This document shows positions 1,695-23,445 of a stretch of 37,804 nucleotides of DNA, one piece after another (the stretch's first letter is position 1; each line of letters starts with the position of its first letter). A program made the position numbers and the translations under genes. The notes under the pieces were generated by a model. It did not search any database. It worked only from the letters and a program-made list of their open reading frames with translations, and was not told where the DNA came from. Source of the DNA: a virus (lineage: Duplodnaviria > Heunggongvirae > Uroviricota > Caudoviricetes); the IMG/VR virus record IMGVR_UViG_2565956716_000007, one strand, 5' to 3'.

Positions 1695-1911
1695 AAAAAT
1701 TCATATGCCCCTGACCACCTGGCAATGGATGTGGAGGAGCAGTAGCAATCAGTGCGGGTGTCACAATAAACCGGACCACTGTTTCATGGGTAACAAAAGT
1801 ACTCCCGCAGTTAATATTTTGGCACTGGCAGTAACGCTCTTTGGTGCTTTCAGTTACTTGAAAACTGCTCCTTGTGTGTGCCGCATGACCACACTTTGGA
1901 CAATTCATCAT
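1693..1911 (-). CDS. ogr: Ogr/Delta-family zinc-finger late-gene activator
   Basis: 72 aa from the internal Met (MMNCPKCGHAAH...CQCQNINC), the Cys4 signature and length of P2 Ogr; adjacent to gene D as in P2. Confidence 0.85.
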   Translation of the reverse strand: MMNCPKCGHAAHTRSSFQVTESTKERYCQCQNINCGSTFVTHETVVRFIVTPALIATAPPHPLPGGQGHMNF

Positions 1912-6500: not shown

Positions 6501-6636
6501 GTTCTTTGAGGCTGTTTCGGGTATTCTGAATTGCGCCAGCCAGCTCTTTCGAACTGGCCTGTGCAGCACGGAATGGGCGGGTGAGTTTGTCAACCGCATT
6601 AAGAATGACCTGCAGGCGCAGGTTATTATCACTCAT
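3559..6636 (-). CDS. T: tail tape measure protein gpT
   Basis: 1025-aa ORF with coiled-coil-rich N-terminal half and hydrophobic tandem repeats (PLAVLRxGLxxxG); follows E/E' as in P2. Confidence 0.85.
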   Translation of the reverse strand: MSDNNLRLQVILNAVDKLTRPFRAAQASSKELAGAIQNTRNSLKELNKQAGRIDEFRKTRSQLAITANNLNAAREEAAKLATQFAATNRPTAAQAKLFSQAKTRVQELQQTYNGLLGAVQRQRQALKESGIDTRQLSSAQRELKKNAEETRQALEGQQKALKRLGEQQARMNAAREQYSRRLEVRDRIAGAGATTTAAGLAMGAPVMAAVKSYTSMEDAMKGVAKQVNGLRDDNGNRTARFYEMQDAIKAASEQLPMENGAVDFAALVEGGARMNVANPDGSWEDQKRDLLAFASTAAKAATAFELPADELSESLGKIAQLYKIPTRNIEQLGDALNYLDDNAMSKGADIIDVMQRLGGVADRLDYRKAAALGSTFLTLGAAPEVAASAANAMVRELSIATMQSKSFFEGMNLLKLNPEVIEKQMTKDAMGTIQRVLEKVNALPQDKRLSAMTMLFGKEFGDDAAKLANNLPELQRQLKLTAGNDALGSMQKESDINKDSLSAQWLLVKTGAQNTFSSLGETLRQPLMDILYTVKSVTGALRRWVEANPELTGTLMKVAAIVAAVTVGLGTLAVALAAVLGPLAVIRLGFSVLGIKTLPSVMAAVTRTSSALSWLAGAPLAVLRRGLASSGNAAGLLTAPLSSLRRTASLTGNVLKTVAGAPVALLRSGLSALRAVAVMFMNPLAVLRGGLAAAGTVLRVLASGPLAMLRVALYAVSGLLGALLSPIGLVVTALAGVALVVWKYWQPITAFLGGVVEGFKAAAGPISAAFEPLKPVFQWIGDKVQALWGWFTDLLTPVKSTSAELQSAAAMGRRFGEALAEGLNMVMHPLDSLKSGVSWLLDKLGIVSKEAAKAKLPESVTRQQPATVNADGKVMMPSGGFPSWGYGFAGMYDSGGYIPRGQFGIVGENGPEIVNGPANVTSRRNTAALAAVVAGMMGVAAAPAELPPLHPLALPAKGGEAIVSRAATVPLVQRIEAPTQIIIQTQPGQSAQDIAREVARQLDERERRLKAKARSNYSDQGGYDA

Positions 6637-7119: not shown

Positions 7120-7635
7120 TCAGAGGCCGAGGGCGTTGCGGTGCGCTTCCATCAGGTCCACACCGTCCACAATTTCCACCATGTTGATAAGGTCCACTTC
7201 ATAGAGCACCTCACCATTTATAGTCAGCTTCGCGTAGCTGTTGGTACTGGTCACTTTGGTGGTGTTGCTTTCGCCCGTCTTCCACTCGCCGGAATCCACT
7301 TCTTTGTGACGTCCACGCACCACAAGCTCCACGGCCTGCACTTCCCCGGTATCGTCACGCTGGATAGAGCCGGTAAAGCGCAGCTGGATACCATCCACCG
7401 TGGCTTTGCCCATCTGCTTAAACAGCAGCAGTTCAGTACCACCAATGGAAAATTCCGTATCCAGTGCGCCGTCATCCAGCCCCAGATCCACATCCACTGC
7501 ACCCGGCATTCCGCCGCCGCGATACTTCTCATATTTGCGGGTAAATTTCGGCAGCGTCAGCGACTCAACGATCCCCTGCCAGTTGTTCCCGTCATTAAAC
7601 AGGTTCAGGTGTTTTAATTTGCGTGGTAAAGCCAT
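7120..7635 (-). CDS. FII: tail tube protein gpFII
   Basis: 171-aa ORF directly downstream of the sheath gene; P2 FII-like size. Confidence 0.85.
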   Translation of the reverse strand: MALPRKLKHLNLFNDGNNWQGIVESLTLPKFTRKYEKYRGGGMPGAVDVDLGLDDGALDTEFSIGGTELLLFKQMGKATVDGIQLRFTGSIQRDDTGEVQAVELVVRGRHKEVDSGEWKTGESNTTKVTSTNSYAKLTINGEVLYEVDLINMVEIVDGVDLMEAHRNALGL

Positions 7636-7644: not shown

Positions 7645-8817
7645 TTACGCGCTGACCTGGCTGGAGAAATTCACCAGGTACTGATCGGTGATGCGCTGAC
7701 GCAGCATCAGGTTTTCAAGTGGCGGCACTGGCGTGTAGTCGTAGTCGATGGTGAGTTTTCCGGCTTTCAGCGTGTCTTTGTCGTTCACCGACTCATCCAG
7801 CCAGCAATCACCACCAATGAGATAGCCCTGACTGACCAGGCTGCGCATTTTGGCGCGGATACCCTCGATAATGTCGCGGGCCAGCGACGGATTCAGCGGT
7901 TTATCCACCGCCCACATGTGCGCTTCTGCCATCGTGTCCGTCAGCACCTGCGCCGTGCGGGTGTAGTTTTCGAAGGCAAAGAGCGGGTCATCACTCAGGC
8001 AGCGGGAACCCCAGAAGCGAAAACCGTCTTTGCGGATAAGGGTGGTGACGTCGTTCTGGTTCAGCAGTCCCGCATCGGTTGCCGGGTCCTGCAGATCCCA
8101 GAACACATCAGCAGAAATTCCGGTGACACCGTTAACGCCCACGTTGGACAGGCTTTTGTGCCATCCGGTCTGCTCGTCAATTTTGGCGCGCAGACCAAGC
8201 GCACGGGCGGTGGCATAAGCCGTTGCTTCGGCATTCAGCACCGTGTCCCAGCCAGTAAAGTCGGGCCAGATCAGCATTCCTTCACGCTGACTGAAGTTTT
8301 CACGGTAAGTGATTGCTTCCTGCACTGTCTTGCAACCATACGCTGACAGGTAAGCAAATCCACGCAGGCTTTGCGCCACGCTCAGCAACTCAGTAGCTAC
8401 CGCCTTCGTGTCGTGACCTGGCACGCCGAGAATGCGCGGTTTAACGCCGAGCTGTGACTGGGCAGATAACAGGGCTTTCATGCCTGTTTTTTTACCTTCA
8501 GCGGTCACTGCTCCGATGATATTGGTCGTGGTTTCTTCTTCCGTTTCACCCTGCGGCACACGCACAACAACGGTCACGGGTTTTGCCTGGTCAGCGATGG
8601 CATCCAGCGAACGAGCCAGCGTGCCTGACTCACCCGCTTTACCGCTGGCAGTCAGCACATCAGTGATCAGCACGGGTTTATTAAGAGGAAACATTTTTGC
8701 ATCGGCATCATCGCCCGTGCAGACCATACCCACGATGGCGGTGCTCACCGTGGTAATGGATCGGGTGCCTTCGTTGACTTCAACAACGCGCACCCCGTGG
8801 TGGTAATCCTGAGCCAT
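7645..8817 (-). CDS. FI: contractile tail sheath protein gpFI
   Basis: 390-aa ORF, first gene of the FI-FII-E-T-U-D block; P2 FI-like size. Confidence 0.88.
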
Positions 8818-8893
8818 AGTGGCGAACCTCCTGATTGGATTAGGCTTCGCCCTATGTTGAAGTGATTGTGCCTGACAAACAGCTAAGCGCAGT

Positions 8894-8911
8894 TGTACCG
8901 TTATTCACACA
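8894..8911 (-). promoter_or_regulatory. candidate Ogr-dependent late promoter element (TGT-N12-ACA) upstream of FI
   Basis: TGTaccgttattcacACA centred about 85 bp upstream of the FI start codon. Confidence 0.45.
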
Positions 8912-8959
8912 AAATGACGGTATTTGTCTGCTTTCAGGGATAATCAAAATAAAGCTGAT

Positions 8960-9526
8960 TCAGGGAGATTTATTGTTCTTATTTGCCGGAAATTTTCGAT
9001 AAATGGTAGAAACGCCTACATCAAAAATCAGTGCAATACGCTGTCTTGATTCTCCGGCCTCGAGTAAACGCCCAATCTGTGCCCACTGTTCGCTGGTCAA
9101 CTTAGGACGGCGTCCACCTACTCTGCCTTTAGCACGAGCTGCAGCCAGCCCCGCCCTGGTACGTTCAACTATCAGTTCGCGTTCCATTTCAGCCAGGGCA
9201 CCCATGACATGAAAAAAGAAACGGCCCATTGGGGTGCTGGTATCAATACTGTCAGTCAGGCTTCGGAAATTCACGCCACGCTGGCGCAGCTCTTCTATCA
9301 GCGTAACAAGATGCCGCATACTGCGCCCCAGTCTGTCCAGCTTCCAGACAACCAGCGTGTCTCCTGCCGATAGTGTCCTGAGCAGCTTTTTCAGCCCCGG
9401 TCTGTCGGACTTGGTGCCACTGATTTTATCCTCAAAAATCCGCTCACATCCCGCACAGTTCAGTGCATTGCGTTGCAAATCGGTGTTCTGGTCATTTGTT
9501 GACACGCGTACATAGCCAATAAGCAT
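8960..9526 (-). CDS. serine recombinase, Hin/Gin/Pin/Cin-family DNA invertase
   Basis: Begins MLIGYVRVSTNDQ (catalytic Ser region), has the resolvase/invertase core and C-terminal HTH; GGGGG RBS 6 nt upstream of the ATG at 9526; abuts the invertible tail-fibre segment. Confidence 0.85.
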   Translation of the reverse strand: MLIGYVRVSTNDQNTDLQRNALNCAGCERIFEDKISGTKSDRPGLKKLLRTLSAGDTLVVWKLDRLGRSMRHLVTLIEELRQRGVNFRSLTDSIDTSTPMGRFFFHVMGALAEMERELIVERTRAGLAAARAKGRVGGRRPKLTSEQWAQIGRLLEAGESRQRIALIFDVGVSTIYRKFPANKNNKSP

Positions 9527-9581
9527 GATCATCCCCCTGAATAAAAACCGGAGATGATGCCAGTTAGCCGTTATCTCTGCA

Positions 9582-9607
9582 TTTTCATAAACGTTCAATT
9601 GGGAGAA
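9582..9607 (+). repeat. 26-bp invertase crossover site (gix/hix-like), left
   Basis: TTTTCATAAACGTTCAATTGGGAGAA is an imperfect inverted copy of 11134..11159 (17 of 26 identical, same central dinucleotide) at the junction with the alternative fibre C-terminus. Confidence 0.5.
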
Positions 9608-9937
9608 GCGGCGAAACGGGATGTTGGCTCAGGGGCGGGACAAGTTCCTGATATGAGTAGTTTTCAGTCAGGTGGCGGGTGGTTTAAGTTGCCGAGTGGA
9701 TATGTTATTCAGGCTTTCGAGGCGTCTTTTGATTCTAACGGGCTATATATCAATTTCCCTATACCATTTCCGAGTAGCGTTATTGCTATTGTGCCAGGCG
9801 TTTTAATGTCAACGACTGCCTCTCCATCACAACAATTTCCATCAATACAACGTGACGTCAATGATCTGACCCGTTTTTTTGCTAAATACAATATGGGTGG
9901 AATGAATGCTTCATATTTTATTGCTATAGGAAAATAA
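9597..9937 (+). other. alternative tail-fibre C-terminal cassette (silent in this orientation)
   Basis: Encodes LGEAAKRDVGSGAGQVPDMSSF..., parallel to the current H C-terminus [24 protein letters not shown]...; no independent start or promoter. Confidence 0.55.
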
Positions 9938-9939
9938 CC

Positions 9940-10362
9940 ATGTATTTATTTTCGCCAAGCACATTGGGTTTTTATCCCATCGAGATGAAAGAAGAATACC
10001 TTACCAATGGTTCATTACCATCTGATGTTATAGAGGTTTCTGATAGCGTCAGAAATGAATATAACTTTGCGCCACCTGAAGGCAAACAGCTAAGTTCCAG
10101 CCAAAATATGCCAGTCTGGATTGATATTCCACCGGCGACACGTGAAGAGTTGATTGCTGCTGCCGAAAAAGAACGCCAGAAACTACTGGCCCATGCTGAC
10201 GCTGTTATGCTGGACTGGCGAACTGAACTGATGCTGGGTGAAATCAGCGACGCCAACAAAGCTAAGCTGTCGGCGTGGCTGGCCTATAAAAATGAAGTTA
10301 AGTCGGCTGATGTGACAACTGACCCGGAGCGTGTTAACTGGCCTGTTCCCCCGGAGGCGTAG
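9940..10362 (+). CDS. tail fibre assembly protein (alternative copy within invertible segment)
   Basis: 140-aa paralogue of the 146-aa ORF at 10334..10774, with the same tail-fibre-assembly pattern (PxDVIEV, WPxxP). Confidence 0.7.
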   Translation: MYLFSPSTLGFYPIEMKEEYLTNGSLPSDVIEVSDSVRNEYNFAPPEGKQLSSSQNMPVWIDIPPATREELIAAAEKERQKLLAHADAVMLDWRTELMLGEISDANKAKLSAWLAYKNEVKSADVTTDPERVNWPVPPEA

Positions 10363-10774
10363 GCCATTCAATATCTGGCGCACCGGAAGTATCGACCAGT
10401 TCCAGTGCGTCCAGATAATCCAGCCACAAATTATATTGCGCCAGTTCCTCACCTTTCAGACGACCAATAGCCGCTTTACCAGGCCATTGTTTACTGTTCA
10501 TATAATCGTTGGCCTGATTAATCAGTTGCTGCTTTTCCTGTTCGGCTGCAGCAATCTGTTCCTCATGTGTTGGTGGTGGAATTTCAGACCATGCAGGAAA
10601 ACCATTTTCTCCAGCGATACGGATTTTTCCTTTCGGCGGTAATCCGGAAAACTCAATATACACTTGCTCATCAACTTCAACAGCATCATCTGGCCATGAG
10701 TCAGCTTGAGTGTAATCCTCTTTCATCTCCAGCGGATAGAAAGAGTTTGTAGTCGCGGAATATATGTAATTCAT
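10334..10774 (-). CDS. G: tail fibre assembly protein gpG
   Basis: 146-aa ORF immediately downstream of H; tail-fibre-assembly family features. Confidence 0.75.
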   Translation of the reverse strand: MNYIYSATTNSFYPLEMKEDYTQADSWPDDAVEVDEQVYIEFSGLPPKGKIRIAGENGFPAWSEIPPPTHEEQIAAAEQEKQQLINQANDYMNSKQWPGKAAIGRLKGEELAQYNLWLDYLDALELVDTSGAPDIEWPTPPGEQAS

Positions 10775-10795
10775 TTTTCACTCCATATAGCTAAA

Positions 10796-12196
10796 TTAAC
10801 AGCCTAACGCTAAAAATGAAGCGCCGAGGCCAGGAGTACTGGCTCTGGATATAAATTTAACCGGGTCGGGACTAAAACCTGCACAGGCAATATAACCAAC
10901 AGCCCCGCTATCTGGTGTGTAGTCTTGTGAGACCAAAACACGCAGACATCTGTTTGGAAATGCAATCGGGAAATGGGTTACTACATCCTGTGCAATGCCT
11001 GGTGCGCCGATTGAGCCCCACTGAAGAATAAAACCTGATGGTAATTTTTGATATCCAGTACCTGAAACAGAAAGCGTGAAGCTACCCATATCAGGTATCT
11101 GATTCGCCCCTGTCCCTACATTCCTTTTAGCCGCTTCTCCCAAACCAAGGTATGCAAGAAGACCGGCAACATCCTTCCCACTCAAATTGGTAAGCGTATT
11201 GTCCAGCGGTTGTTTACCTGCCAGCGCATTAAGCATTGTCGTGGCAAAGTTCGGATCATTCCCCAGTGCCGCCGCCAGTTCGTTCAGTGTATCCAGTGCC
11301 GCGGGTGCAGAACCCACCATTGCTGCAATCGCTGATTTCACAAAAGCTGTAGTGGCAATCTGTGTATTGTTGACCGACTGTGCCGCAGTAGGTGCTGTTG
11401 GCGTTCCGGTGAGTGCTGGACTCGACAGCGGCGCTTTTTGTGCCAGCGCATTGTTAATGGTGGTACTGAAATTCGGATCATTGTTAATGGCTGCGGCTAT
11501 TTCTTTCAGCGTGTCCAGCGTGGCTGGCGCACCATTAATAAGAGCCGTCAGAGCCGCCTGAACAAACGCGGTGGTCGCAATCTGCGTGGTGTTATTCCCT
11601 GCTGCTGGCGTTGGCGCTTTGGGTGTCCCGGTAAACGTCGGACTTTCTTTGGGTGCATACTGTGAATGCGGGTCCGGTGCGGCAAGATGTTTTGCCATCT
11701 GATCATCCGCGTACACCTTCAGCTCCAGTGCCTTGTCATCCACATACTTGCGGGTTGCCAGCACTACAGCAGGGTCGATTTTCAGGGTGATATTGTCCGT
11801 GCTGCTGGTAATCAGCACCATGCGCACGGTCTGAGTGCGCCCGCTACCTTCAGCCAGTTGCGGCTTATAGCTTTCCGGGCAGTTTCCCACGGCAATCAAT
11901 GCCCCGGATTCATCAAACAGGCCCACTTCACGTATCCACCAACCGCCCTCGTTTTCAGGGATCACCTGTTCGGCAATAATCTGGCTGCTGTTCTGCGGGT
12001 CGATATAAAGCATATTCAGCGCAGCCCGGCGTTTCTCATTTACCAGTGCCGTCTGCTTTGCGTCCGGCGTTGGCAATACTCCACCGCCATCGCCCACCGC
12101 CATATGGGTAATTTTTAGCGGCACACCGAGCGCGGCGGCGCTGGCAAGTTTCGCCGCGCCAATATCCGTCAGCAGGGTATAAAATTTTGTGCTCAT
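10796..12196 (-). CDS. H: tail fibre protein gpH (C-terminus inside invertible segment)
   Basis: 466-aa ORF with an internal duplicated ~45-aa module; C-terminal 113 aa lie beyond the crossover site. Confidence 0.85.
11134..11159 (-). repeat. 26-bp invertase crossover site inside gene H, right
   Basis: TTCTCCCAAACCAAGGTATGCAAGAA resembles hix/gix sites (AAACC..GGT core) and marks where H and the alternative cassette start to diverge. Confidence 0.5.
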
Positions 12197-12798
12197 GGAT
12201 TCACTCTCATTGTGTCAATAACATGGACCGCCCCGCCTTCATGCGCGGTGCCACCGGAAATAATCGTTTCGTTGATATACGGATAGATCGTGATTTCTTC
12301 GCCAAGATAGCTGGCAGCTCCCACCCAATGCGGGCCGCTGGTCTGCAGATTGATGGACATGCCGATCATGTGACGGCTACATGGTTTGGCATCGCTTATC
12401 AGTCGCTCAAGTTCCAGATAGGTATCTTCAGTGATGCCCTGGTCCTGCACACCAATGTCCAGACGAAACGTGCCCGGTGTTTCTCCGGTCTGCCACCACT
12501 CAATAATGCGGATCAGGAAGCCGAACGGCTCCACCACCCGCCGTACGGCACTGGTGGTTCCTTTGTGCTGATGAATATAAAAAGCATCCTTCACTACCTG
12601 GCGTTTGACGCTTTCTGTCCAGCCCTCGTCCCAGCGATCCACAGAGAACGCCCAGGCGAGATAAGGCAGGAAGCTGACCGGACAGGTAGCCGGATTCCAC
12701 AAGTCACGCAGCGGCACCTGCAAATCAGAAATCCCGCTACAGGTTTGCGCCAGTCGGCGCTCCAGTGAAGTTGAACCCGGTGGCAGCAGACTATTCAT
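12193..12798 (-). CDS. I: baseplate protein gpI
   Basis: 201-aa ORF between J and H, coupled by 4-nt overlap. Confidence 0.75.
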
Positions 12799-13699
12799 CC
12801 GTTCCTCCGTTGGTTACGCTCCACTGCGTACATGATGCCGCCTGTGTTTTGTTCAGGACCACATCCGCCAGCGGAGAAGCCAGTTCCACACGTTGAACAC
12901 CCTCAACATGCAGAGCAGCAAAGATGGCGCTACGGCGAATATCCCGGCCAAGCCTCGTCTGGCTGGCGATGTACTTCTGCAGGCTGGTTTTTGCCGCTGC
13001 CATTACCGGCTCTGCTTCCGGTCCCGGATAGAGAAAAATGGTGGCTTCCACGCGATACGGGATGATTTCTGCGCTGCGAACCGTCAGACGGTCAGCCACC
13101 GGGCGGACGTTCTCACTGTTCAGAGCTTTTTCCACCACGTCCAGCAGGTCTTTTTCTGCAGTTCCATCGCCTTCGCGGCTAAGGACAGTCAGCACCACCT
13201 CTGCAGGTGCCGGGCTGGTTGCACTGGCATCCGCCACCCTACCGTCGGCGCTTCGGGCATGAAATTCATAAGCTGCAGTTGGCCCCGCAACAGAAAGCCC
13301 TTCAAAGGCTGCAGGCACACGCAGGCGTAACGCTTCATCGCTTTCCATCACAGCTGCAACGGGCGGCACAGCATCATTATCAGCAGGCGTCACCGTCAGG
13401 CGTGTCACGTTGTAGTTGGCAGCGAGCTGGTCAAGATCGCCGCCCATCGCGTAAGCCACCATCACCGCCTGCGCGGCTTCGTTAATGCGCTGGCGCAGAA
13501 GCAACTCACGGTAAGCGTTCTCCTGCAACAATTTAGTGACGGGTTCAGATTCCAGTTCCAACGTTCGGATCACGGCTTCCTGCTCATCTTTCGGATGAAG
13601 CGCCACAAATTCTGCCTTGCGTTCGGCAAGCAGCGTCTCAAAGTCCGGCACATCCACAATCTGCGGTGCAGGCAACTGCGAAAGGTCAATCACTGCCAT
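12791..13699 (-). CDS. J: baseplate protein gpJ
   Basis: P2 J-like size and position; start taken at the internal Met (MAVIDLSQLP) just after the end of W. Confidence 0.75.
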   Translation of the reverse strand: MAVIDLSQLPAPQIVDVPDFETLLAERKAEFVALHPKDEQEAVIRTLELESEPVTKLLQENAYRELLLRQRINEAAQAVMVAYAMGGDLDQLAANYNVTRLTVTPADNDAVPPVAAVMESDEALRLRVPAAFEGLSVAGPTAAYEFHARSADGRVADASATSPAPAEVVLTVLSREGDGTAEKDLLDVVEKALNSENVRPVADRLTVRSAEIIPYRVEATIFLYPGPEAEPVMAAAKTSLQKYIASQTRLGRDIRRSAIFAALHVEGVQRVELASPLADVVLNKTQAASCTQWSVTNGGTDE

Positions 13700-14045
13700 T
13701 CTCTGCTCCTGTTGATACGGAAAGGGACACAGGCACACCGTTATTCCGCCGCCCGGTCAGCTCCACCACCATAGAACCGTCAAAGTTGCTGTTGATGGTG
13801 ATGGAATCCAGCATCAGCCGTGGCTCCCAGCGACTCAGCGCCACATACACTGCCGACATGACCTGCAGGCGTAATGCCGGATTTTGTGGCTGATCTATTA
13901 AAACCGACAGGAGGGAACCATATTCCCGGCGGGCAATACGGCTACCCTGCGGTGTCAGCAGAATGTCCCGCACCGACTGGCGCAGATGATCAATATCAGT
14001 AATGACTTTGCCGCTGGTATTGTTCATCCCGCTATAAAGCGTCAT
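13686..14045 (-). CDS. W: baseplate wedge protein gpW
   Basis: 119-aa ORF between V and J. Confidence 0.75.
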   Translation of the reverse strand: MTLYSGMNNTSGKVITDIDHLRQSVRDILLTPQGSRIARREYGSLLSVLIDQPQNPALRLQVMSAVYVALSRWEPRLMLDSITINSNFDGSMVVELTGRRNNGVPVSLSVSTGAENGSD

Positions 14046-14620
14046 ACCGGGCCTCCGGTTGTATCGCCGCCTTTCAGGACGCCAGTATGCTGATGCGCAT
14101 CAACCACGATCCCGTTAGAACTCATCGCTCCGCCGCCCTGGGTAACGCCACCATTGATCACCACTTCGCTGTTAATGCGCGTGCGGTCAGCCTCCAGTAC
14201 AAACTCACTGGTTTTCATGGTGATGTTGTCAGCAGCCTCAATGACCATTGATTTGATGCCCCTGACATACCAGCGCCCGGTGGCGGGTTCGTATTCAAAC
14301 CAGCCACCGTCAGGATGTTCTGTCACGCAGGCGTCCGCCGACGTCGACGGTGGTGCGAACTGATTCGAATAGACAGCGGGCAGCGCAAAGGCGGTTTCCA
14401 GATTGCCGCCCAGACTCAGCAGCACCACCTGCTCACCTTCCGATGGTCGCCACCATGTACGGGCATTCCCGGCACGCAGCGTCAGCCAGCTGATCCAGTT
14501 GGTTTCAAGCTCGCCCGTTTTCACCCGGCAAAGCCAGTTTTCCCTGTCCACTTCGGTGACTACCCCTGTGCGGATCAGGTTGGTGATAAGGCGCATGATT
14601 TCGGTTAATTGTGCGTTCAT
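14042..14620 (-). CDS. V: baseplate spike protein gpV
   Basis: 192-aa ORF; N-terminus MNAQLTEIMRLITNLIRTG resembles the P2 V N-terminus as I recall it. Confidence 0.8.
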   Translation of the reverse strand: MNAQLTEIMRLITNLIRTGVVTEVDRENWLCRVKTGELETNWISWLTLRAGNARTWWRPSEGEQVVLLSLGGNLETAFALPAVYSNQFAPPSTSADACVTEHPDGGWFEYEPATGRWYVRGIKSMVIEAADNITMKTSEFVLEADRTRINSEVVINGGVTQGGGAMSSNGIVVDAHQHTGVLKGGDTTGGPV

Positions 14621-14666
14621 AGGGAAAGGTTGCCATCAGGGGAAGAAAGGCGGCAGTGCTGCAACT

Positions 14667-14684
14667 TGTATCAGTGCTGATACA
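14667..14684 (-). promoter_or_regulatory. candidate late promoter element upstream of V (perfect palindrome)
   Basis: TGTATCAGTGCTGATACA, a perfect TGT-N12-ACA dyad in the 68-bp S-V intergenic region. Confidence 0.45.
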
Positions 14685-14688
14685 AAGA

Positions 14689-15135
14689 TCACCCCGCCAG
14701 CCATTGCAGAATCATGTCGCGGGTCATTGCCTCAACATCATCATTTACACCCAGCAGGCGGCGCTCTGCGTAACGGACCTCCGGTCCTTTGCGACTGACG
14801 CGATCACGCAGGCCGTAATGGTGAACGCGGGCAATGCGCTGCACCTTGCCTTCAAACTGCACGCTGGCAGAGTCGGTGCTGGCGGCAGTTTTCAGGTATT
14901 TTGTGGTGCGCAGCTTTGCAAACATCTGACGTTTGATACGGCCTTTTTTACTGCGTGCTGTTACCCGTCGCGGTTCATAACTACTGCCGTCAGGGTTGCG
15001 CTGCATCCTGATATTCTGCTGCTGTGTCCGGCGAAGTTCCTGCGCCAGCTGGCGCATCATGCGGCTTCTCGAGGCTGGTTCCAGATTCGCCAGCAAGGCA
15101 CTCAGCCAGTCGTCCACCTTCTGCAGTTCAGCCAC
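14689..15135 (-). CDS. S: tail completion protein gpS
   Basis: 148-aa ORF at the P2 S position. Confidence 0.7.
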   Translation of the reverse strand: MAELQKVDDWLSALLANLEPASRSRMMRQLAQELRRTQQQNIRMQRNPDGSSYEPRRVTARSKKGRIKRQMFAKLRTTKYLKTAASTDSASVQFEGKVQRIARVHHYGLRDRVSRKGPEVRYAERRLLGVNDDVEAMTRDMILQWLAG

Positions 15136-15580
15136 GTTTCACCGTCCACATTTCTTCAGGTGCATCAGGTTCCGCTATAGCTTCAACGCTCGACACACTG
15201 CCGTCAGTGCTGACCAGCACACGTTCCGTCAGTTGCAGGTTCAGGCTGATATCACAGACATCGTTGCGCAGAATATCCACCTCAAAGGTGAATAGCTTTT
15301 CCCGTAACGCCGGGTTATTGATGGCATCGGGCTGGTTATCCCTCAGCCACAGCAAAACCGGGGCCATCAGCAGATTCTGGTCGCCGCTGAAATCCTCAAT
15401 CACCGCGTTCAGTGTGTAACGGTACTCCCACGACATGGAGCTGGCCCCCGTGGCAACCAGCGAACCGTTATCCACAAACAGATGCAGTTTGTCCGGGTTA
15501 TTGCGGACATAAGGCACCGCTTTATTGAGGGCGTGGCGCAGGGATTGTGGTTTGTTCACTGTTTCGCTCCTGACACGCAA
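15128..15580 (-). CDS. R: tail completion protein gpR
   Basis: 150-aa ORF at the P2 R position. Confidence 0.7.
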   Translation of the reverse strand: MRVRSETVNKPQSLRHALNKAVPYVRNNPDKLHLFVDNGSLVATGASSMSWEYRYTLNAVIEDFSGDQNLLMAPVLLWLRDNQPDAINNPALREKLFTFEVDILRNDVCDISLNLQLTERVLVSTDGSVSSVEAIAEPDAPEEMWTVKRG

Positions 15581-15812
15581 TAATCATGTCCACTTTGTCT
15601 GCACAGACCGCCCAGGCGGCCTCCGTTTCATCCAGCAACGCATTCAGATCACCGTTAGTGCGCGGTGCTGCCTGCTCCAGCCGACACGGCGTCACTCGCG
15701 GACAACCACTGACGGTAAGCTGCACCTCCGGTGAGTGCCGGACGTTCCCGCAGCCGGATAATGTCAGCAGGCAAAGGAGTATCAGCCCAGTGGCGTAAAT
15801 CCTCGTTCTCAC
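15522..15812 (-). CDS. Rz1-like outer-membrane lipoprotein (LysC-like), embedded in lysB
   Basis: Signal peptide plus lipobox LLTLSGC and a Pro-rich mature part; starts inside lysB in another frame. Confidence 0.55.
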   Translation of the reverse strand: MRTRIYATGLILLCLLTLSGCGNVRHSPEVQLTVSGCPRVTPCRLEQAAPRTNGDLNALLDETEAAWAVCADKVDMIIACQERNSEQTTIPAPRPQ

Positions 15813-16083
15813 GTTTCAGTTCCTCGATCCGGCGTTGTCGTTGTCTCAGCTGTGCGCTGGTCTGTTCTGCTTCGGCATAGAGCCGCGCCTGCTCCCGGTT
15901 ATTGGTTTCAGTCAGAATGGACAGGCTGATAAGCTGGCTGTTGCTCTTTGCCAGTGCCTGGCTTTTGCTCTGCAGCTCGTTTGCCTGCGTGCTGATGGTC
16001 TGGCTGGCATCAGCCAGCCGCCACGTCTGCCAGCCCAGCGCCGCCAGTAATAACGCCAGCACAACCAGCAGCAACCGGTTCAT
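15655..16083 (-). CDS. Rz-like spanin (LysB-like)
   Basis: N-terminal TM helix followed by a charged coiled-coil region (QRQRRIEELKRENEDLR). Confidence 0.65.
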   Translation of the reverse strand: MNRLLLVVLALLLAALGWQTWRLADASQTISTQANELQSKSQALAKSNSQLISLSILTETNNREQARLYAEAEQTSAQLRQRQRRIEELKRENEDLRHWADTPLPADIIRLRERPALTGGAAYRQWLSASDAVSAGAGSTAH

Positions 16084-16457
16084 GCTGCTACCTGTTGCGC
16101 CATCTGATTACGGGTGATCCAGAAGGCAATAACGGTCAGTAGATAAAAGACCAGGGTAATAGCCCACCCCGTCCATGCGAGACTTACAACAATCAGCAAT
16201 CGCATCACCCAACAGATAAATACATTTTCTTTTCGGGTAATTGTCTTCAGCAAAGATGCCCTTAACTCCTGCCAGAGCGGGCCATTCTGAATTAACGCAG
16301 CCAGTGCTACCGGAATTACCGCCCATGTCAGCAAACAGGCTACCCAAACGCCGGACGCTGCCAGTACCGGAAAGATCCCCTGCGGATACACCATTGCTGC
16401 GATTAACAGCGCCATCCATAACATCAGAAACAGTCCGCTGATTAATTTCTTTTTCAT
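16080..16457 (-). CDS. LysA-like membrane protein
   Basis: Multi-TM ORF; start taken at MKKKLISG with AGGGAG RBS; overlaps the endolysin stop. Confidence 0.55.
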   Translation of the reverse strand: MKKKLISGLFLMLWMALLIAAMVYPQGIFPVLAASGVWVACLLTWAVIPVALAALIQNGPLWQELRASLLKTITRKENVFICWVMRLLIVVSLAWTGWAITLVFYLLTVIAFWITRNQMAQQVAA

Positions 16458-16458
16458 T

Positions 16459-16971
16459 TCAGTTTGCTCCCTGTAAACACCAGGCCATCTCCCGCGCACG
16501 GCGGTTATCCAGCCCCTGATTAAACACACCTTTTACATAAACCCAGCGCGGCAACTGTCGGCACGCATCCGCCCAGCGCCGCTGATTGAGCAATTTCACC
16601 AGCGTGGAACTACAGGCATTGCCCGTCCCCACGTTGAAGGCAAACGACACCGTAGCGTCATACACCTTCTGTGGTGGCTGTTGCTTCACACACCTTTCCA
16701 GTGCCCGCTCCACACGCAGCACGTTGGAGATCAGCCCTTCTGCTGCCTGTCGTTCCGTGATTGTTTTGCCGGGAATGACGCCCGATGTATTACCAATGCC
16801 GTCGGTCCAGACACCCGCGCTGCACTGATACGGCTGCAGACGACAGCCTTCGTAATCGGCAATCAGTTTCAGCCCCTCCACGGAGGTGTGAAGCTGCTGA
16901 AAACCCGGCAGCGTGGCAGCAATAGCCAGCACGGCCCCGACAAGGCAGCGTTTAACGATTGATGGATTCAT
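16459..16971 (-). CDS. endolysin (phage lysozyme), probable SAR type
   Basis: T4-lysozyme-like core (ADYEGCRLQPYQCSAGVWTDGIGNT) preceded by an uncleaved-looking hydrophobic N-terminal segment. Confidence 0.75.
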   Translation of the reverse strand: MNPSIVKRCLVGAVLAIAATLPGFQQLHTSVEGLKLIADYEGCRLQPYQCSAGVWTDGIGNTSGVIPGKTITERQAAEGLISNVLRVERALERCVKQQPPQKVYDATVSFAFNVGTGNACSSTLVKLLNQRRWADACRQLPRWVYVKGVFNQGLDNRRAREMAWCLQGAN

Positions 16972-17167
16972 AGTCCTCCCGCGAGATCTGCCCGTCGCGC
17001 AGAAGCTGGTAGGCTTTGTGTTTGTAGTACCAGTTGATAGCCAGCATCAGCACACCAATCATCAGGCCGCCCAGCGTTGAGGCATCCTTGATGGACAAAT
17101 CGCCCAGCCAGGCCAGCACGACGGCGATGCAATACGTGATAAAGGCGCTGATTCGCTCAAGCGTCAT
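16952..17167 (-). CDS. putative holin (two TM segments, pinholin-like)
   Basis: 71-aa ORF with two hydrophobic helices and a charged C-terminus, immediately upstream of the endolysin. Confidence 0.55.
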   Translation of the reverse strand: MTLERISAFITYCIAVVLAWLGDLSIKDASTLGGLMIGVLMLAINWYYKHKAYQLLRDGQISREDYESINR

Positions 17168-17170
17168 AAT

Positions 17171-17374
17171 TCAGTCCCATAGCTGGACGGTCTGCACGGT
17201 GGTGGTGGTCGGTATGTCCGGCAGCTCCACCTGCAGCCCGTGAGGTAAAAAGGGGCCGTATTCGGCAAGCCCCGGATTTGCCTTCAGTACCTGCTCCGTG
17301 ACACCCTGCGTGCGCCCGTAATGACGCCAGCATAGCGCGTCCACCGTGTCATACTGATACGCACGCACTTTCAT
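17171..17374 (-). CDS. X: tail protein gpX
   Basis: 67-aa ORF between L and the lysis genes, P2 X-like size. Confidence 0.65.
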   Translation of the reverse strand: MKVRAYQYDTVDALCWRHYGRTQGVTEQVLKANPGLAEYGPFLPHGLQVELPDIPTTTTVQTVQLWD

Positions 17375-17838
17375 CAGATAAGCTCCACTGTGCAGTGCGG
17401 CGCATCCTGCACCCGGCTGATGGCCCAGCGGGCGTCACGCCACAAATCACCGCTTGCTTCCGCCAGTTCCTCGCCCCGCTTCACACCGGATGCCGTGGCG
17501 TCATAGTCCTGATAACGCTCGTTGAGCATGGCGCGTGCCCAGCAGTAAACCGCGTTGAAATAGTGATGAATGCGCTCACTTTTGCCGTCCAGCTGTTCAG
17601 CCGGAACCTCAGCCAGCGACACATACCCCAGCATCTGCTGACGTCTGCGAAACTCATACAGCTCTGCGTTGACCTCCGAAATTGCCGACAGCGCAACCTG
17701 CTTTAAACGCGGCTGCGTCACCGTGCCGTCAGTGCGCATCACGCTGCGAAACTCCGACAGGTCCACATCAGGCCAGAACGGCGTATTTCTGATGATTTCC
17801 GCCTGTTCCGGTGCCTGTTCTGGCGCAACAAACTTCAT
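17374..17838 (-). CDS. L: head completion protein gpL
   Basis: Start taken at MKFVAPEQ, which has AGGAGA 8 nt upstream; the longer ORF start at 17901 lacks an RBS. Confidence 0.7.
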   Translation of the reverse strand: MKFVAPEQAPEQAEIIRNTPFWPDVDLSEFRSVMRTDGTVTQPRLKQVALSAISEVNAELYEFRRRQQMLGYVSLAEVPAEQLDGKSERIHHYFNAVYCWARAMLNERYQDYDATASGVKRGEELAEASGDLWRDARWAISRVQDAPHCTVELI

Positions 17839-17933
17839 GCTGCTTTCTCCTGAAATAGAGGGCGGTGGACGGGGTTTTGATGTGGTAGTGCCTTTCGCCA
17901 CCCCGTGCCGCCCGTGCGCGGGGGCACGTTCTG

Positions 17934-18584
17934 TCAGCGGCTGTCATTGCGCAGTCTGCGCTCCAGCTGCTGTTTGTCTTTTTTCACGCCACAGCGGGGA
18001 TCGAGCTGTAACGCATGGTTGAGATGATTAAGGGCGGAAGCCGGATTGCTTTCACTCAGGACAGCGCCAATCGCTTTATGCAGACGCGCCCGTGACTGGT
18101 CCGGCATATCCAGACCGTCTGTCAGCTCCAGCGTCTGCAGCAACAGATCGGCATCAAAGCCGGTGGCGGCAAGCATTGCGCTCTGCGCGGCGTCTGCCAT
18201 TTCCTCTGCCAGCACGGTCTGCACGTTGCGGTTACCCAGCGGCATCACCCAGCCATGACGCAGGGCATGACGCCCGATCTCCAGCGCCCCGGCATAATCT
18301 CCGGCATCAATGCGCCACAGCATCACGTACATCAGCACGTCATCCTGTTGAGCGCCTCCGGCAGCCAGGACACCCTCTGCCCAGGCGGCGTACTTCGGCA
18401 GCAGCTCCACCTTGATTTCCGCTTTTTTGACCGTGGACTGAACGCCCTTGAGACGGCGGCGGTCTTCCGCCAGTTGCAGCAGCATCAGGTCATAGCCCGA
18501 TGCGTGGCGAACACTGCCGCCCTCGCGGGCGGCCTGTTCAGCCTGAACGCGCAGGCGATGCTGCCGTGCGGGACTCAGGCTCAT
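17934..18584 (-). CDS. M: terminase endonuclease (small) subunit gpM
   Basis: 216-aa ORF between N and L. Confidence 0.75.
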   Translation of the reverse strand: MSLSPARQHRLRVQAEQAAREGGSVRHASGYDLMLLQLAEDRRRLKGVQSTVKKAEIKVELLPKYAAWAEGVLAAGGAQQDDVLMYVMLWRIDAGDYAGALEIGRHALRHGWVMPLGNRNVQTVLAEEMADAAQSAMLAATGFDADLLLQTLELTDGLDMPDQSRARLHKAIGAVLSESNPASALNHLNHALQLDPRCGVKKDKQQLERRLRNDSR

Positions 18585-18587
18585 GGA

Positions 18588-19646
18588 TTACTCTCCGGTT
18601 TCTGCTGCGGCGGCGCTGAAATCGCCAATCTGGATGTTTTCCACCAGTGCGGCGCAGCGGTAGTCCTCGACCACATAGGCTTCGTTAACGGATTCAAAGT
18701 TTTCAATCCGGTCACGTTTCGGGTTGTCGATAACTGAACGGCGGCGGGTGTCTTCCTGCCAGTAGATGGACAGGTTATCCAGACGGGTGATCAGCAGCGC
18801 ATTCGGCGGGAAGAACGGCGCACGCACGGCCTGCAGGCCTCCCATGCGTTTCTGACTGATGATCATATCGGCAGCCAGTTTTTCACTGTTTTCCTGCTCT
18901 TTGTTGACCAGCGGGAAATACTTGTCAGACAGCAGCTCACGACCGCAAATCACCACCAGATCGTCATCGTCCTGGTAGACCACGTCGATAAGCTCATTGA
19001 CGGCATCCATCACCACGGCGTCCAGGTTGGCATATTCGCCACCTTTTCCGACTTTCACCGCGCCCGGTGTGGTTTCACCGCCCGTGGTGGTGCTGCCCAT
19101 GACGTGATCCGGTGCATCCTCACGGATTTTCTGCAACCAGCCTTTGTTCACATCCTGCAGCAGCGGGTTTTCGCTACGGTTGGAGGTTTTCGCACGCTTC
19201 ACGCCGTTAAAGCCGATCATGATGCGGTCCAGTGCCTGACGTTTCACGATGGCGTCACGGATACGCACCTGGAAATCCTGAAACTTCGCCCACAGGTCCA
19301 GCTTCGCGTAGGTCAGTACCGTGTCAAAGTTGGTCTGCTCGCATTTGTATTCCACATCGACCATCAGCGTAGGATCGACAGGTTCACGCTCTTTCGCGGT
19401 GGTGTCGGTGGTTCCGGCAATGGTGCTACCAACACCCAACCCCAGCAGCTGACCGGACTGCTCAGTCACTGGCGTGACGTTAATCAGCGTCAGGAAAGCG
19501 GCGGACTGCTGGATCTGGTCTTCCAGCGTCTGCTGTACAGACGGCTCCACGGTGAACTTGCTGGACAGTTCTTCAACTGCCACACCGTTCAGACGCGCCA
19601 GCTGCTGCAGGTAAGCGTTAAAAGCAAAGCGGGTATTCTTCTTCAT
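18588..19646 (-). CDS. N: major capsid protein gpN
   Basis: 352-aa ORF, P2 N-like size, after scaffold gene O. Confidence 0.88.
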   Translation of the reverse strand: MKKNTRFAFNAYLQQLARLNGVAVEELSSKFTVEPSVQQTLEDQIQQSAAFLTLINVTPVTEQSGQLLGLGVGSTIAGTTDTTAKEREPVDPTLMVDVEYKCEQTNFDTVLTYAKLDLWAKFQDFQVRIRDAIVKRQALDRIMIGFNGVKRAKTSNRSENPLLQDVNKGWLQKIREDAPDHVMGSTTTGGETTPGAVKVGKGGEYANLDAVVMDAVNELIDVVYQDDDDLVVICGRELLSDKYFPLVNKEQENSEKLAADMIISQKRMGGLQAVRAPFFPPNALLITRLDNLSIYWQEDTRRRSVIDNPKRDRIENFESVNEAYVVEDYRCAALVENIQIGDFSAAAAETGE

Positions 19647-19662
19647 CAGGTTTTGTGCTCCA

Positions 19663-20496
19663 TCAGCAATTGGTCAGAGTGTCAGCGGGGGCGTTACCGC
19701 CTGTTGCACGCTGGCGGTAGTCCTGGCGGCTGTCTTCATGACTCAGCTTATTCACCAGTTCGTTAAAGGCGGTTTGCTGCTCCTGCAGAGCAGTCTCCAG
19801 TTCAGACAGGCGTTCTTCCTGCTCAGACAGGGATTTTTCGGTGCGCGCGCTCAGGTTCTGCTGCTCAGTGGCAACCAGCTCCACGGCCTTATGCACATCA
19901 GAGAACCGGGCGTCATCGGACTGTTCTTTTTTGGTAAACAACGCCGTGACACGGGCAAACAGGGACGGTTTGTCATCCTGGATTTCTTCCAGTTCGATCA
20001 CCGTTTCCTCTGCAGCGGTAAAGAGATTTGCAGGATTCTGCTTGCGGTTTGCCAGCGGGTTATGAGCTGCACTGGCGCTGAATGTCAGCATTTCCGTACC
20101 CAGACTGGCAGGGTCATCAGTGGCCGCCAGGCCGACCAGGTAGGCTTTGCCCGTATCAGCGAACTTCGGGCTGACTTCCATAGAGGTGAATAATTTCTGG
20201 CCTTTTTTCACCAGCTCCACCAGGGATTCCGTTGGCTCAACGTCGGCATACAGCGCCATCTTGCCTGCCAGCGGACCTTCCGTGATTTCTTCGGCAAACA
20301 GCGCCGTCACCTTGCCGTAACGGTTAAAGGTGCTGTCCGGCAGATAAGACTTGATGTGCTCAAGGTTAATCAGCGCGGTATACACCGCCGGGTTGTAGCT
20401 GGCTGCCATCTGTTCCAGCCATTCACGCTGGATTTCGCGTCCGTCGGTGGTGGCACCTTCCACCCCGATGCGAAAACGCTTTGCTTTCACTGTCAT
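19663..20496 (-). CDS. O: capsid scaffolding protein gpO
   Basis: 277-aa ORF with acidic, coiled-coil C-terminal half; divergent from P. Confidence 0.85.
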   Translation of the reverse strand: MTVKAKRFRIGVEGATTDGREIQREWLEQMAASYNPAVYTALINLEHIKSYLPDSTFNRYGKVTALFAEEITEGPLAGKMALYADVEPTESLVELVKKGQKLFTSMEVSPKFADTGKAYLVGLAATDDPASLGTEMLTFSASAAHNPLANRKQNPANLFTAAEETVIELEEIQDDKPSLFARVTALFTKKEQSDDARFSDVHKAVELVATEQQNLSARTEKSLSEQEERLSELETALQEQQTAFNELVNKLSHEDSRQDYRQRATGGNAPADTLTNC

Positions 20497-20574
20497 GAGC
20501 CGTGCTCCGTTAGAAAAAACTTACTGGAGCCTTATGGTTGCGGTGATGGGGGCAGTGAAACAATGCGCGGTATT

Positions 20575-20592
20575 TGTACCGACAACCACACA
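20575..20592. promoter_or_regulatory. candidate late promoter element in the divergent O/P intergenic region
   Basis: TGTaccgacaaccacACA (TGT-N12-ACA), about 87 bp from the O start and 55 bp from the P start. Confidence 0.45.
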
Positions 20593-20638
20593 AACCGCAG
20601 GCGGGGAAAGCCTTCATTCAAGGCTGTAGGTTTGTGCC

Positions 20639-22405
20639 ATGAACACCACACTGACACCCGCAGATCTCGATCCCCGTAGGCAGGCCATGCTGCTGTACTT
20701 TCAGGGATACCGCGTAGCCCGCATTGCTGAAATGCTGGGCGAGAAAGTTGCAACCGTTCACAGCTGGAAAAAACGCGACAAGTGGGGTGACTATGGGCCG
20801 CTGGATCAGATGCAGCTCACCACCGCCGCACGCTACTGCCAGCTCATCATGAAGGAGCACAAAGAAGGGAAAGATTTCAAAGAGATTGACCTGCTGGCGC
20901 GCCAGTCGGAACGCCACGCGCGGATCGGCAAGTTTAACAATGGCGGCAACGAAGCCGACTTAAACCCTAACGTCGCCAACCGTAACAAAGGCCCGCGCCG
21001 TCAGCCGGAAAAGAATGTTTTCACCGATGAGCAGATTGAGAAGCTGGAAGAAATCTTCCATTCCTCCATGTTCAACTACCAGCACCACTGGTGGGAAGCT
21101 GGAAAAACCAACCGCATCCGCAACCTGCTGAAGTCACGCCAGATCGGCGCGACTTTTTACTTTGCCCGTGAAGCCCTGATTGACGCCCTACTGACAGGAC
21201 GCAACCAGATTTTCCTTTCTGCCAGTAAGGCACAGGCTCACGTCTTTAAGCAGTACATCATCGACTTCGCCAAAGAAGTCGAGGTGGAGCTGAAAGGCGA
21301 TCCGATGGTGCTTCCTAACGGGGCCACGCTTTACTTCCTCGGCACCAATGCCCGCACGGCCCAGAGTTACCACGGCAACCTGTATCTGGATGAATATTTC
21401 TGGATACCGAAATTCCAGGAGCTGCGCAAAGTGGCTTCCGGTATGGCTATTCACAAAAAATGGCGACAAACCTATTTTTCCACGCCATCCAGCCTGACAC
21501 ACAGTGCTTATCCGTTCTGGTCCGGTGCGCTGTTTAACCGTGGGCGCAACAAAGCCGATAAGGTGGACATCGACCTGTCCCACAACAATCTGGCCCCCGG
21601 CCTACTGTGCGCAGACGGGCAATACCGCCAGATAGTCACCGTGGAAGATGCGGTGCGCGGCGGCTGTAACCTGTTCGACCTCGACCAGCTACGCATGGAG
21701 TACAGCCCGGACGAATATCAGAACCTGCTCATGTGCGAGTTCGTGGACGATCTCGCGTCCGTGTTCCCGCTCAGCGAACTGCAGGCGTGCATGGTGGACA
21801 GTTGGGAAGTCTGGACCGACTTTCATGCACTGGCCCTGCGCCCGTTTGGCTGGCGCGAGGTGTGGATCGGTTATGACCCGGCAAAAGGTACGCAGAATGG
21901 CGACAGCGCCGGATGCGTGGTGGTGGCACCGCCAGCCGTGCCAGGCGGTAAGTTTCGCATTCTTGAGCGTCACCAGTGGCGCGGGATGGACTTCCGCGCC
22001 CAGGCTGATGCAATCAAAAAACTGACCGAGCAGTACAACGTGACCTATATCGGCATCGACTCGACAGGCGTCGGTCACGGGGTTTATGAGAACGTGAAAG
22101 CGTTCTTTCCTGCCGTCCGGGAGTTTGTCTACAACCCCAACGTTAAAAACGCCCTGGTACTCAAGGCCTACGACATTATCAGCCACCGCCGTCTGGAGTT
22201 TGACGCCGGGCACACCGACATTGCGCAGTCATTCATGGCAATCCGTCGCGCCACCACCGCCAGCGGCAACCGCCCGACCTATGAAGCTAGCCGCAGCGAA
22301 GAAGCCAGCCACGCCGATCTGGCCTGGGCAACAATGCACGCACTGTTTAACGAACCGCTGCAGGGCGAGTCCGCCAATACCAGCAATATTGTGGAGATTT
22401 TTTGA
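20639..22405 (+). CDS. P: terminase large (ATPase) subunit gpP
   Basis: 588-aa ORF, P2 P-like size, divergent from O; recognised as the large terminase by size and position, nuclease-domain motifs not verified. Confidence 0.9.
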   Translation: MNTTLTPADLDPRRQAMLLYFQGYRVARIAEMLGEKVATVHSWKKRDKWGDYGPLDQMQLTTAARYCQLIMKEHKEGKDFKEIDLLARQSERHARIGKFNNGGNEADLNPNVANRNKGPRRQPEKNVFTDEQIEKLEEIFHSSMFNYQHHWWEAGKTNRIRNLLKSRQIGATFYFAREALIDALLTGRNQIFLSASKAQAHVFKQYIIDFAKEVEVELKGDPMVLPNGATLYFLGTNARTAQSYHGNLYLDEYFWIPKFQELRKVASGMAIHKKWRQTYFSTPSSLTHSAYPFWSGALFNRGRNKADKVDIDLSHNNLAPGLLCADGQYRQIVTVEDAVRGGCNLFDLDQLRMEYSPDEYQNLLMCEFVDDLASVFPLSELQACMVDSWEVWTDFHALALRPFGWREVWIGYDPAKGTQNGDSAGCVVVAPPAVPGGKFRILERHQWRGMDFRAQADAIKKLTEQYNVTYIGIDSTGVGHGVYENVKAFFPAVREFVYNPNVKNALVLKAYDIISHRRLEFDAGHTDIAQSFMAIRRATTASGNRPTYEASRSEEASHADLAWATMHALFNEPLQGESANTSNIVEIF

Positions 22406-23445
22406 TGGGAAAGAGTAAGAAAAACCGCGCTGCGGCGACGAAACGGAGCCAGCATAAAAATCAAACTTCAGCCGAAGCTTTCAGCTTTGGTGATCCCATT
22501 CCTGTACTGGACCGCCGCGAACTGCTGGACTATGTGGAATGCGTACAGACGGATCGCTGGTATGAGCCACCCGTAAGTTTTGACGGACTGGCGCGCACCT
22601 TCCGGGCTGCCGTGCATCACAGTTCCCCGATTGCAGTAAAGTGCAACATTCTGACCAGTACCTATATCCCTCATCCGCTGCTCAGCCAACAGGCTTTTTC
22701 GCGTTTTGTGCAGGACTATCTGGTATTTGGTAACGCCTACCTGGAGAAACGCACGAACCGATTCGGTGAAGTTATCGCCCTTGAGCCTGCGCTGGCAAAA
22801 TACACCCGACGAGGGTTAGACCTGGAGACCTACTGGTTTGTGCAATACGGCATGACTACGCAGCCGTATCAGTTCACGAAAGGCAGCATTTTTCATCTGA
22901 TGGAACCGGACATCAACCAGGAGATCTACGGCCTGCCCGGTTATCTTTCTGCCATTCCGTCAGCCCTGCTCAACGAGTCCGCCACGCTGTTCCGCCGTAA
23001 GTATTACATCAACGGCAGCCATGCAGGCTTCATCATGTACATGACCGATGCCGCGCAGAACCAGGAGGATGTGAACAACCTCCGCAATGCGATGAAAAGC
23101 GCCAAAGGCCCTGGCAACTTCCGCAACCTGTTTATGTACTCGCCTAACGGCAAAAAGGACGGGCTTCAGATTATTCCTCTGTCAGAAGTCGCGGCAAAGG
23201 ATGAATTTTTGAATATCAAGAACGTGAGCCGGGATGACATGATGGCAGCGCATCGTGTTCCGCCACAGATGATGGGGATTATGCCGAATAATGTCGGGGG
23301 GTTTGGGGATGTGGAGAAGGCCAGCCGCGTTTTTGTTCGAAATGAACTGATCCCCCTACAGAAGCGTTTTGAGGAACTGAATAGCTGGGCCAATGAACAA
23401 GTAATTCGTTTTGATTCTTATGCATTTGAACCCAACATAACTTAA
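22402..23445 (+). CDS. Q: portal protein gpQ
   Basis: 347-aa ORF coupled to P by 4-nt overlap; P2 Q-like size. Confidence 0.9.
   Translation: MMGKSKKNRAAATKRSQHKNQTSAEAFSFGDPIPVLDRRELLDYVECVQTDRWYEPPVSFDGLARTFRAAVHHSSPIAVKCNILTSTYIPHPLLSQQAFSRFVQDYLVFGNAYLEKRTNRFGEVIALEPALAKYTRRGLDLETYWFVQYGMTTQPYQFTKGSIFHLMEPDINQEIYGLPGYLSAIPSALLNESATLFRRKYYINGSHAGFIMYMTDAAQNQEDVNNLRNAMKSAKGPGNFRNLFMYSPNGKKDGLQIIPLSEVAAKDEFLNIKNVSRDDMMAAHRVPPQMMGIMPNNVGGFGDVEKASRVFVRNELIPLQKRFEELNSWANEQVIRFDSYAFEPNIT

Follow-up and report, generated by a model that had tools for sequence, protein, structure and literature searches.

Late transcription in phage P2 starts from four promoters, PP, PO, PV and PF, which are activated by Ogr and also by P4 Delta, and in phage 186 from p12, pV, p32 and pJ, which are activated by B. 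One passage of PMC3152322 describes Ogr as binding inverted repeats whose center lies near -55 and as requiring RNA polymerase's alpha subunit, and a passage of PMC3931495 states TGT-N12-ACA as the consensus for PP, PO, PV and PF. Here we analyzed three TGT-N12-ACA dyads in a stretch of 37,804 nucleotides from a Caudoviricetes virus (IMG/VR record IMGVR_UViG_2565956716_000007); we refer to this whole stretch as the window. The window reads as a P2/186-like prophage (~1690-32500) in reverse orientation, whose closest named relative is Escherichia phage 500465-1 (Wadgaonvirus, Peduoviridae), with ~97% DNA identity over 8000-22000, a region that is also ~97% identical to many Klebsiella and Escherichia prophages. 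Phage 500465-1 and its near-identical Escherichia/Klebsiella prophages share the window's gene order, including an invertase gene, its 142-bp gap between genes O and P, and the same annotated P start, and no relevant difference was seen. Promoter annotation is absent from the 500465-1 record, and our literature search returned no experimental work on late transcription in Wadgaonvirus.

All three dyads were found where the original prediction had placed them. Gene identities, taken from Pfam matches together with the layout of open reading frames, likewise bore out its assignment of the genes downstream of them as FI, V, O and P. The sites are as follows.

8894-8911, minus strand: predicted pF activator-binding dyad, TGTACCGTTATTCACACA, which reads TGTGTGAATAACGGTACA on the transcribed strand; center 85.5 bp upstream of the FI ATG.
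14667-14684, minus strand: predicted pV activator-binding dyad, TGTATCAGTGCTGATACA, within the 68-bp gap between S and V; center 55.5 bp from the V ATG.
20575-20592, no strand assigned: predicted common pO/pP activator-binding dyad, TGTACCGACAACCACACA; distance from center to ATG, 87.5 bp for O and 55.5 bp for P.

The dyads head the late operons P-Q, O...S, V...G and FI...D, at the same positions as the sites in the P2 and 186 records. The dyad upstream of V had been described as a perfect 18-bp palindrome, which it is not, because its central TG cannot be self-complementary; 16 of its 18 positions are, and together with one flanking base on each side it forms a 9+9 inverted repeat around a 2-bp center.

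The sites, their positions, their conservation in relatives, the presence of an activator gene in the prophage and the lack of a -35 element and of Shine-Dalgarno sequences are observations; activator binding, activator dependence and the exact start sites we infer. We read the three dyads as sites bound by the Ogr/B-type zinc-finger activator that the prophage itself encodes, through which it would drive four P2/186-like late promoters, and assign this reading a probability of roughly 0.9. Late in infection, the activator would bind TTGT-N12-ACAA dyads centered about 55 bp upstream of the starts and would recruit the host's sigma-70 RNA polymerase (in P2, by way of the alpha subunit, on whose C-terminal domain late transcription there depends) at promoters with a weak -10 and no -35 element. 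The dyad at 8894-8911 would drive FI-FII-E-T-U-D. For V-W-J-I-H, driven by the dyad at 14667-14684, transcription would begin with the A of the V ATG, so that the mRNA would lack a leader, as it does in P2. The dyad at 20575-20592 would lie midway between back-to-back promoters, serving O-N-M-L... leftward in the window and P-Q rightward, and in the window's clade the first base of the P transcript would be that of the P start codon.

The candidate activator is encoded at the end of the prophage.

1693-1911, minus strand: late activator gene of the Ogr/B family (ogr/B homologue), 72 amino acids, with a C-X2-C-X22-C-X4-C zinc finger (Pfam PF04606 Ogr_Delta, E = 1.5e-20).

Its product is 63% identical to 186 B and merely 54% identical to P2 Ogr, all four cysteines are kept, and the gene directly follows D, as it does in P2 and 186. 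With an Ogr/Delta-family gene in the prophage and dyads at the positions of annotated P2 and 186 sites, the original prediction that these are P2-type activator sites of late promoters is supported.

A separate observation concerns control of the activator gene itself. The gap between D and the activator gene (1912-1979) aligns with the pB region of 186, which is repressed by CI in that phage, and contains the inverted repeat ATCATT-AC-AATGAT. Given the 186-type CI of the window, direct repressor control, as in 186, may apply to the activator gene.

We next compared the promoters themselves. Aligned on the dyad, all four in the window can be superimposed without gaps, with the dyad at -64 to -47 and the -10-like hexamers at -12 to -7. 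The predicted +1 is a spacing inference, placed 55.5 bp from the dyad center and 7 nucleotides after the hexamer.

8854-8859, minus strand: pF hexamer CAACAT; predicted +1, an A, at 8847; leader of 30 nucleotides with the Shine-Dalgarno sequence AGGAGG.
14627-14632, minus strand: pV hexamer CAACCT; predicted +1 at 14620, the A of the V ATG; leader of 0 nucleotides, no Shine-Dalgarno sequence.
20535-20540, minus strand: pO hexamer CAACCA; predicted +1 at 20528; leader of 32 nucleotides with the Shine-Dalgarno sequence GGAG.
20627-20632, plus strand: pP hexamer TAGGTT; predicted +1 at 20639, the A of the P ATG; leader of 0 nucleotides, no Shine-Dalgarno sequence.

The Shine-Dalgarno sequences of FI and O are strong ones. 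A distance of 111 bp separates the predicted pO and pP starts, just as it separates the mapped P2 starts at 3016 and 3127. A consensus scan of the three gaps found no match to a sigma-70 -35/-10 promoter, which fits activator dependence, and the -36 to -30 regions of the four promoters (GCTGTTT, CTGCCGC, ATTGTTT and GGGGAAA) hold no recognizable -35 element. The hexamers differ from those of P2, with CAACNN in the window compared to GAAACT/GAAAAT in P2, where the counterpart of the pV hexamer is GCAATCT.

Within the pV region we also observed a short CTGCC / ATGCC element (window 14651-14655, minus strand, at about -36 to -32) that is seen again in relatives whose upstream and spacer sequences are otherwise unrelated, and that may be a weak -35-like or an activator-proximal promoter element.

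To place these distances in an evolutionary context, we collected relatives from 240 viral contigs around O, V and FI and from 80 species-representative genome loci around O with 10-kb flanks; the conservation figures given here span ~55 species-level genome loci plus the 240 viral contigs. Viral-contig relatives of O were 99-100% identical and uninformative for the O/P gap, where the diversity came from the species-representative genomes, with O proteins 57-99% identical to that of the window. Among 48 distinct O/P gaps from these relatives, each contained exactly one conserved dyad, and its center stood exactly 55.5 bp from the P ATG in every case (48/48). The distance to the O ATG ranged from 81.5 to 100.5 bp in the same gaps, and the N12 spacer was variable.

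The dyad upstream of V is held almost as tightly. In 38 loci, two of which have a further match downstream, the distance from its center to the V ATG is 55.5 bp, and in 8 others it is 54.5-57.5 bp, for a total of 46 of the 48 dyad-bearing loci; the distance is kept even where unrelated cargo genes replace S upstream. In the two remaining loci (L262 and L264), the center is 68.5 bp from the V ATG, and a 13-nucleotide leader has appeared that carries AAGAGG or AAGAAGG, a purine run resembling a Shine-Dalgarno sequence; this looks like a natural leaderless-to-leadered switch of V. Upstream of FI, every clade member examined has the dyad center 78.5-85.5 bp from the ATG, and the upstream neighbor of the dyad varies among them (invertase, tail-fiber assembly gene or terminator).

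The sites also share bases outside the search pattern. Across 142 distinct sites, at positions that had not been used for selection, a T preceded TGT in 90%, and TGT was followed by R, Y, S and R, giving a half-site of TTGTRYSR; the flanks and the N12 spacer vary among relatives. The background frequency of TGT-N12-ACA in the relatives' loci was one match per 4947 bp.

For comparison with the prototypes, we used the activator sites and starts annotated in the curated P2 and 186 GenBank records. The P2 record gives one 'activator binding site; pO, pP promoters' at 3057-3087, with the P operon starting at 3016 (minus strand) and the O operon at 3127 (plus strand), 111 bp apart and each about 55 bp from the site center. 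Its pV site (10239-10266) is centered 55.5 bp upstream of position 10308, where the V operon starts on the first base of its V coding sequence. Similarly, a single site for the B protein (3798-3817) is annotated in the 186 record, to serve p12 and pV, which are divergent, and the distance from the FI/J ATG to the annotated site center is 82.5 bp in both phages. With one common site of the O/P type in both records and a V start annotated on the first V base in P2, a common O/P site and a leaderless V are canonical P2/186 layouts. The two geometries that had been called unusual are therefore the expected ones. A passage of PMC4633059 names P2 among the few E. coli sources of leaderless genes, by way of Christie & Calendar 1985.

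The window follows P2 in having four late operons with identical gene order, inverted repeats that lie about 55 bp upstream of the starts (predicted starts, in the window) without a -35 element, one site for divergent PO and PP, and a V mRNA that begins on the ATG (again as predicted in the window). Its affinities with 186 lie in the single site for divergent promoters, in the gap between S and V (68 bp, compared to 69 bp between the 186 homologues), in a 186-type CI repressor with adjoining integrase, in the alignment of the D-to-activator gap with the pB region and in the closer identity of the activator to B. Among the differences, the O/P gap of 142 bp in the window compares with 173 bp for P2 and 165 bp for 186, with the missing bases on the P side, and pF follows a DNA invertase gene in the window but fun(Z) in P2. 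Overall, the late-promoter system of the window is an ordinary instance of the known P2/186 type.

Several points weigh against this reading of the dyads. The window sites are perfect TGT-N12-ACA dyads, whereas the annotated sites of P2 (3057-3087, 10239-10266 and 17555-17583, in the O/P, V and FI regions) and of 186 (3798-3817 and 14091-14110) contain no exact match; these read TGT-N12-CCA, or TGT-N11-ACA for P2 pV. Because the prototype sites give no exact match, the window's clade fits the textbook consensus better than P2 and 186 do. Since those sites deviate from the perfect pattern and the activators are 54-63% identical, the specificity of the window activator may differ somewhat from that of the P2 and 186 activators. 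The bare TGT-N12-ACA pattern is also not enriched, with 6 matches in the window versus 10.2 expected from shuffled sequences, and two of the 6 are intragenic (at 5589 in T and at 7584 in FII). Finally, every functional step for late promoters in this phage and its genus rests on homology. The signal rests on position and on the extended motif, not on the bare-pattern count: in the 37.8-kb window, TTGT-N12-ACAA matches only the three dyads (3 versus 0.88 expected, with at least 3 in 5 of 100 shuffles).

The O/P gap had been described as holding a single dyad. We found a second exact match there, 58 bp from the first within the 142 bp.

20633-20650, no strand assigned: second exact TGT-N12-ACA, TGTGCCATGAACACCACA, overlapping the P start codon.

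We asked if this match could be a functional second activator site, either as a dedicated site for pO or pP or as a means of shutting off pP by occupancy over its +1. Beyond the exact pattern, such a role could be argued from several relatives that also have the match but whose inner sequences differ, as in TGTGCCATGGATATGACA (P strand). It is kept, however, in only 10 of the 48 distinct clade sequences and lacks the flanking T/A of the extended motif, and its two halves have other explanations, the TGT half being part of a conserved TGTGCC stretch between the hexamer and the P ATG and the ACA half being codon 4 of P, an invariant threonine (T4). An activator site at this position would moreover put the pO start inside the first dyad, and a single common site suffices in P2 and 186. 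We therefore consider a second functional site improbable; the match at 20633-20650 is most likely a by-product and not a binding site.

A different function could also be imagined for the near-palindrome between S and V, whose main role might be that of an RNA hairpin (terminator or attenuator) at the end of the O operon, instead of protein binding. It lies 5 bp past the S stop codon, read-through RNA can form the dyad hairpin inside a G+C-rich outer stem followed by UUUCUU, and P2 has a putative terminator after S. The predicted fold, however, was no better than that of shuffled sequence (z = -0.36), the A+T-rich stem is not immediately followed by a proper T run, and the outer stem found no support from covariation (term +0.83; only 1 compensatory pair, which falls inside the dyad). 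We rejected terminator or RNA structure as the main function of this palindrome on the fold and covariation results. The distance from the dyad to the V ATG, moreover, is maintained where the upstream gene is not S, which ties the dyad to V and not to the end of S. A hairpin role accordingly has only a slim chance of being the right explanation, and activator binding is preferred here as at the other two sites.

That the dyads are functionless chance matches to a short, degenerate pattern is harder still to sustain. The pattern fixes only 6 bases, and the count of bare matches given above, with two of them in coding sequence, can be cited for such a view. The three dyads nevertheless lie in precisely the slots orthologous to the annotated sites of P2 and 186, no other position in the window matches the extended motif, and the slots are filled at fixed distances in dozens of relatives whose spacers and upstream genes differ, against the background noted earlier. 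We exclude chance on the strength of these conservation data.

Binding by a host factor such as CRP, whose half-sites (consensus TGTGA/TCACA, spaced as TGT-N10-ACA) resemble the TGTG...CACA ends of the dyads, is equally hard to credit and is excluded by the spacing, which is N12 and not N10 in all clade sites collected, while the prophage carries an Ogr-family gene of its own and extended-motif sites occur only at late-operon starts.

With the phage activator as the preferred reading, we turned to the consequence of the promoter alignment for P, the large terminase gene. In P2, the mapped pP start at 3016 is the 7th nucleotide after TAGCCT and is followed by a 23-nucleotide leader with GAGG and then the ATG; the P homologue of 186 likewise has a leader with a Shine-Dalgarno sequence, its TAGCCT lying 29 nucleotides from the ATG. 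In the window, the hexamer TAGGTT is homologous to the TAGCCT of P2 and 186, and the 7th nucleotide after it is the A of the P ATG itself, with neither the P2 leader nor its GAGG. The same arrangement extends through the clade, where TAnnnT occupies -12 to -7 of the P ATG in all 48 distinct sequences and a Shine-Dalgarno core was found at -17 to -5 in none of them (0/48). P2/186-type relatives, in contrast, have a P leader of 28-30 nucleotides with GAGG (13/13). The start codon is correctly called, because the P N-terminus aligns with those of P2 and 186 from Met1. An internal start at Met17 was considered as well and rejected on this alignment and on the lack of conservation of residue 17. 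One feature speaks for a leader: an AGGT 7 nucleotides before the P ATG could serve as a weak Shine-Dalgarno sequence if transcription began further upstream. On balance, these comparisons favor a P mRNA that is leaderless, like that of V, in Wadgaonvirus and in relatives across many Enterobacterales. We found no description of a leaderless P mRNA, or of late-promoter mapping in this clade, in the searchable literature, a search that did not extend to the primary P2 and 186 papers; a transcriptome paper on Salmonella BTP5 contained no late-promoter data. The P2 and 186 leader, together with its Shine-Dalgarno sequence, would represent either an insertion of ~23 nucleotides or an ancestral state that was lost in the window's clade.

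If P is leaderless, one activator site would fire both a leadered O transcript and a P transcript starting on AUG, from promoters 111 bp apart. A passage of PMC4633059 states that leaderless ATG starts are poorly translated in E. coli, so a leaderless P could set a low ratio of terminase to scaffold. E. coli has very few leaderless genes, and P would then be a second conserved example in the same phage family; with its natural leadered counterparts in P2 and 186, it would lend itself well to studying how a leaderless start determines expression. This predicted leaderless terminase mRNA, the one point of some wider interest, adds modestly to the known picture. More broadly, Escherichia and Klebsiella prophages of a very common group retain the P2/186 late-gene switch with its spacing unchanged to the base, a result that carries little weight for general biology. 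Late operons in such prophages can be annotated from the sites and predicted starts, which also give clean predictions for RNA sequencing after induction and could aid the design of activator-dependent reporters.

The remaining genes of the prophage to which the text refers are arranged as follows.

1980-3080, minus strand: D.
3559-6636, minus strand: T.
7120-7635, minus strand: FII.
7645-8817, minus strand: FI, tail sheath.
8960-9598, minus strand: Hin-type invertase (Pfam Resolvase and HTH_7).
10796-12196, minus strand: H.
14042-14620, minus strand: V, baseplate spike.
14689-15135, minus strand: S.
19663-20496, minus strand: O, scaffold.
20639-22405, plus strand: P, large terminase.
22402-23445, plus strand: Q, portal.
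30846-31478, plus strand: 186-type CI.
31480-32493, plus strand: integrase.

The region of the Hin/Gin-type invertase (window 8960-11143) is located between the tail-fiber genes and pF, the place of fun(Z) in P2. Adjoining the invertase gene is a segment of ~1.4 kb, the edges of which are 65-nucleotide inverted repeats at 9599-9663 and 11079-11143 that are 78% complementary. Two tail-fiber assembly genes in this segment are in opposite orientation (9940-10362, plus strand; 10334-10774, minus strand). The arrangement of invertase and repeat-bounded segment resembles the Mu G / P1 C type of invertible host-range switch.

Outside the prophage, the tmRNA gene ssrA (698-1060; tag ANDENYALAA) lies ~630 bp from the prophage end that bears the activator gene, and this proximity suggests integration at or near ssrA. 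Between Q and the replication genes, we observed an open reading frame of 413 amino acids (23497-24738, minus strand), in a position that serves P2-like phages as a slot for lysogenic-conversion or defense cargo.

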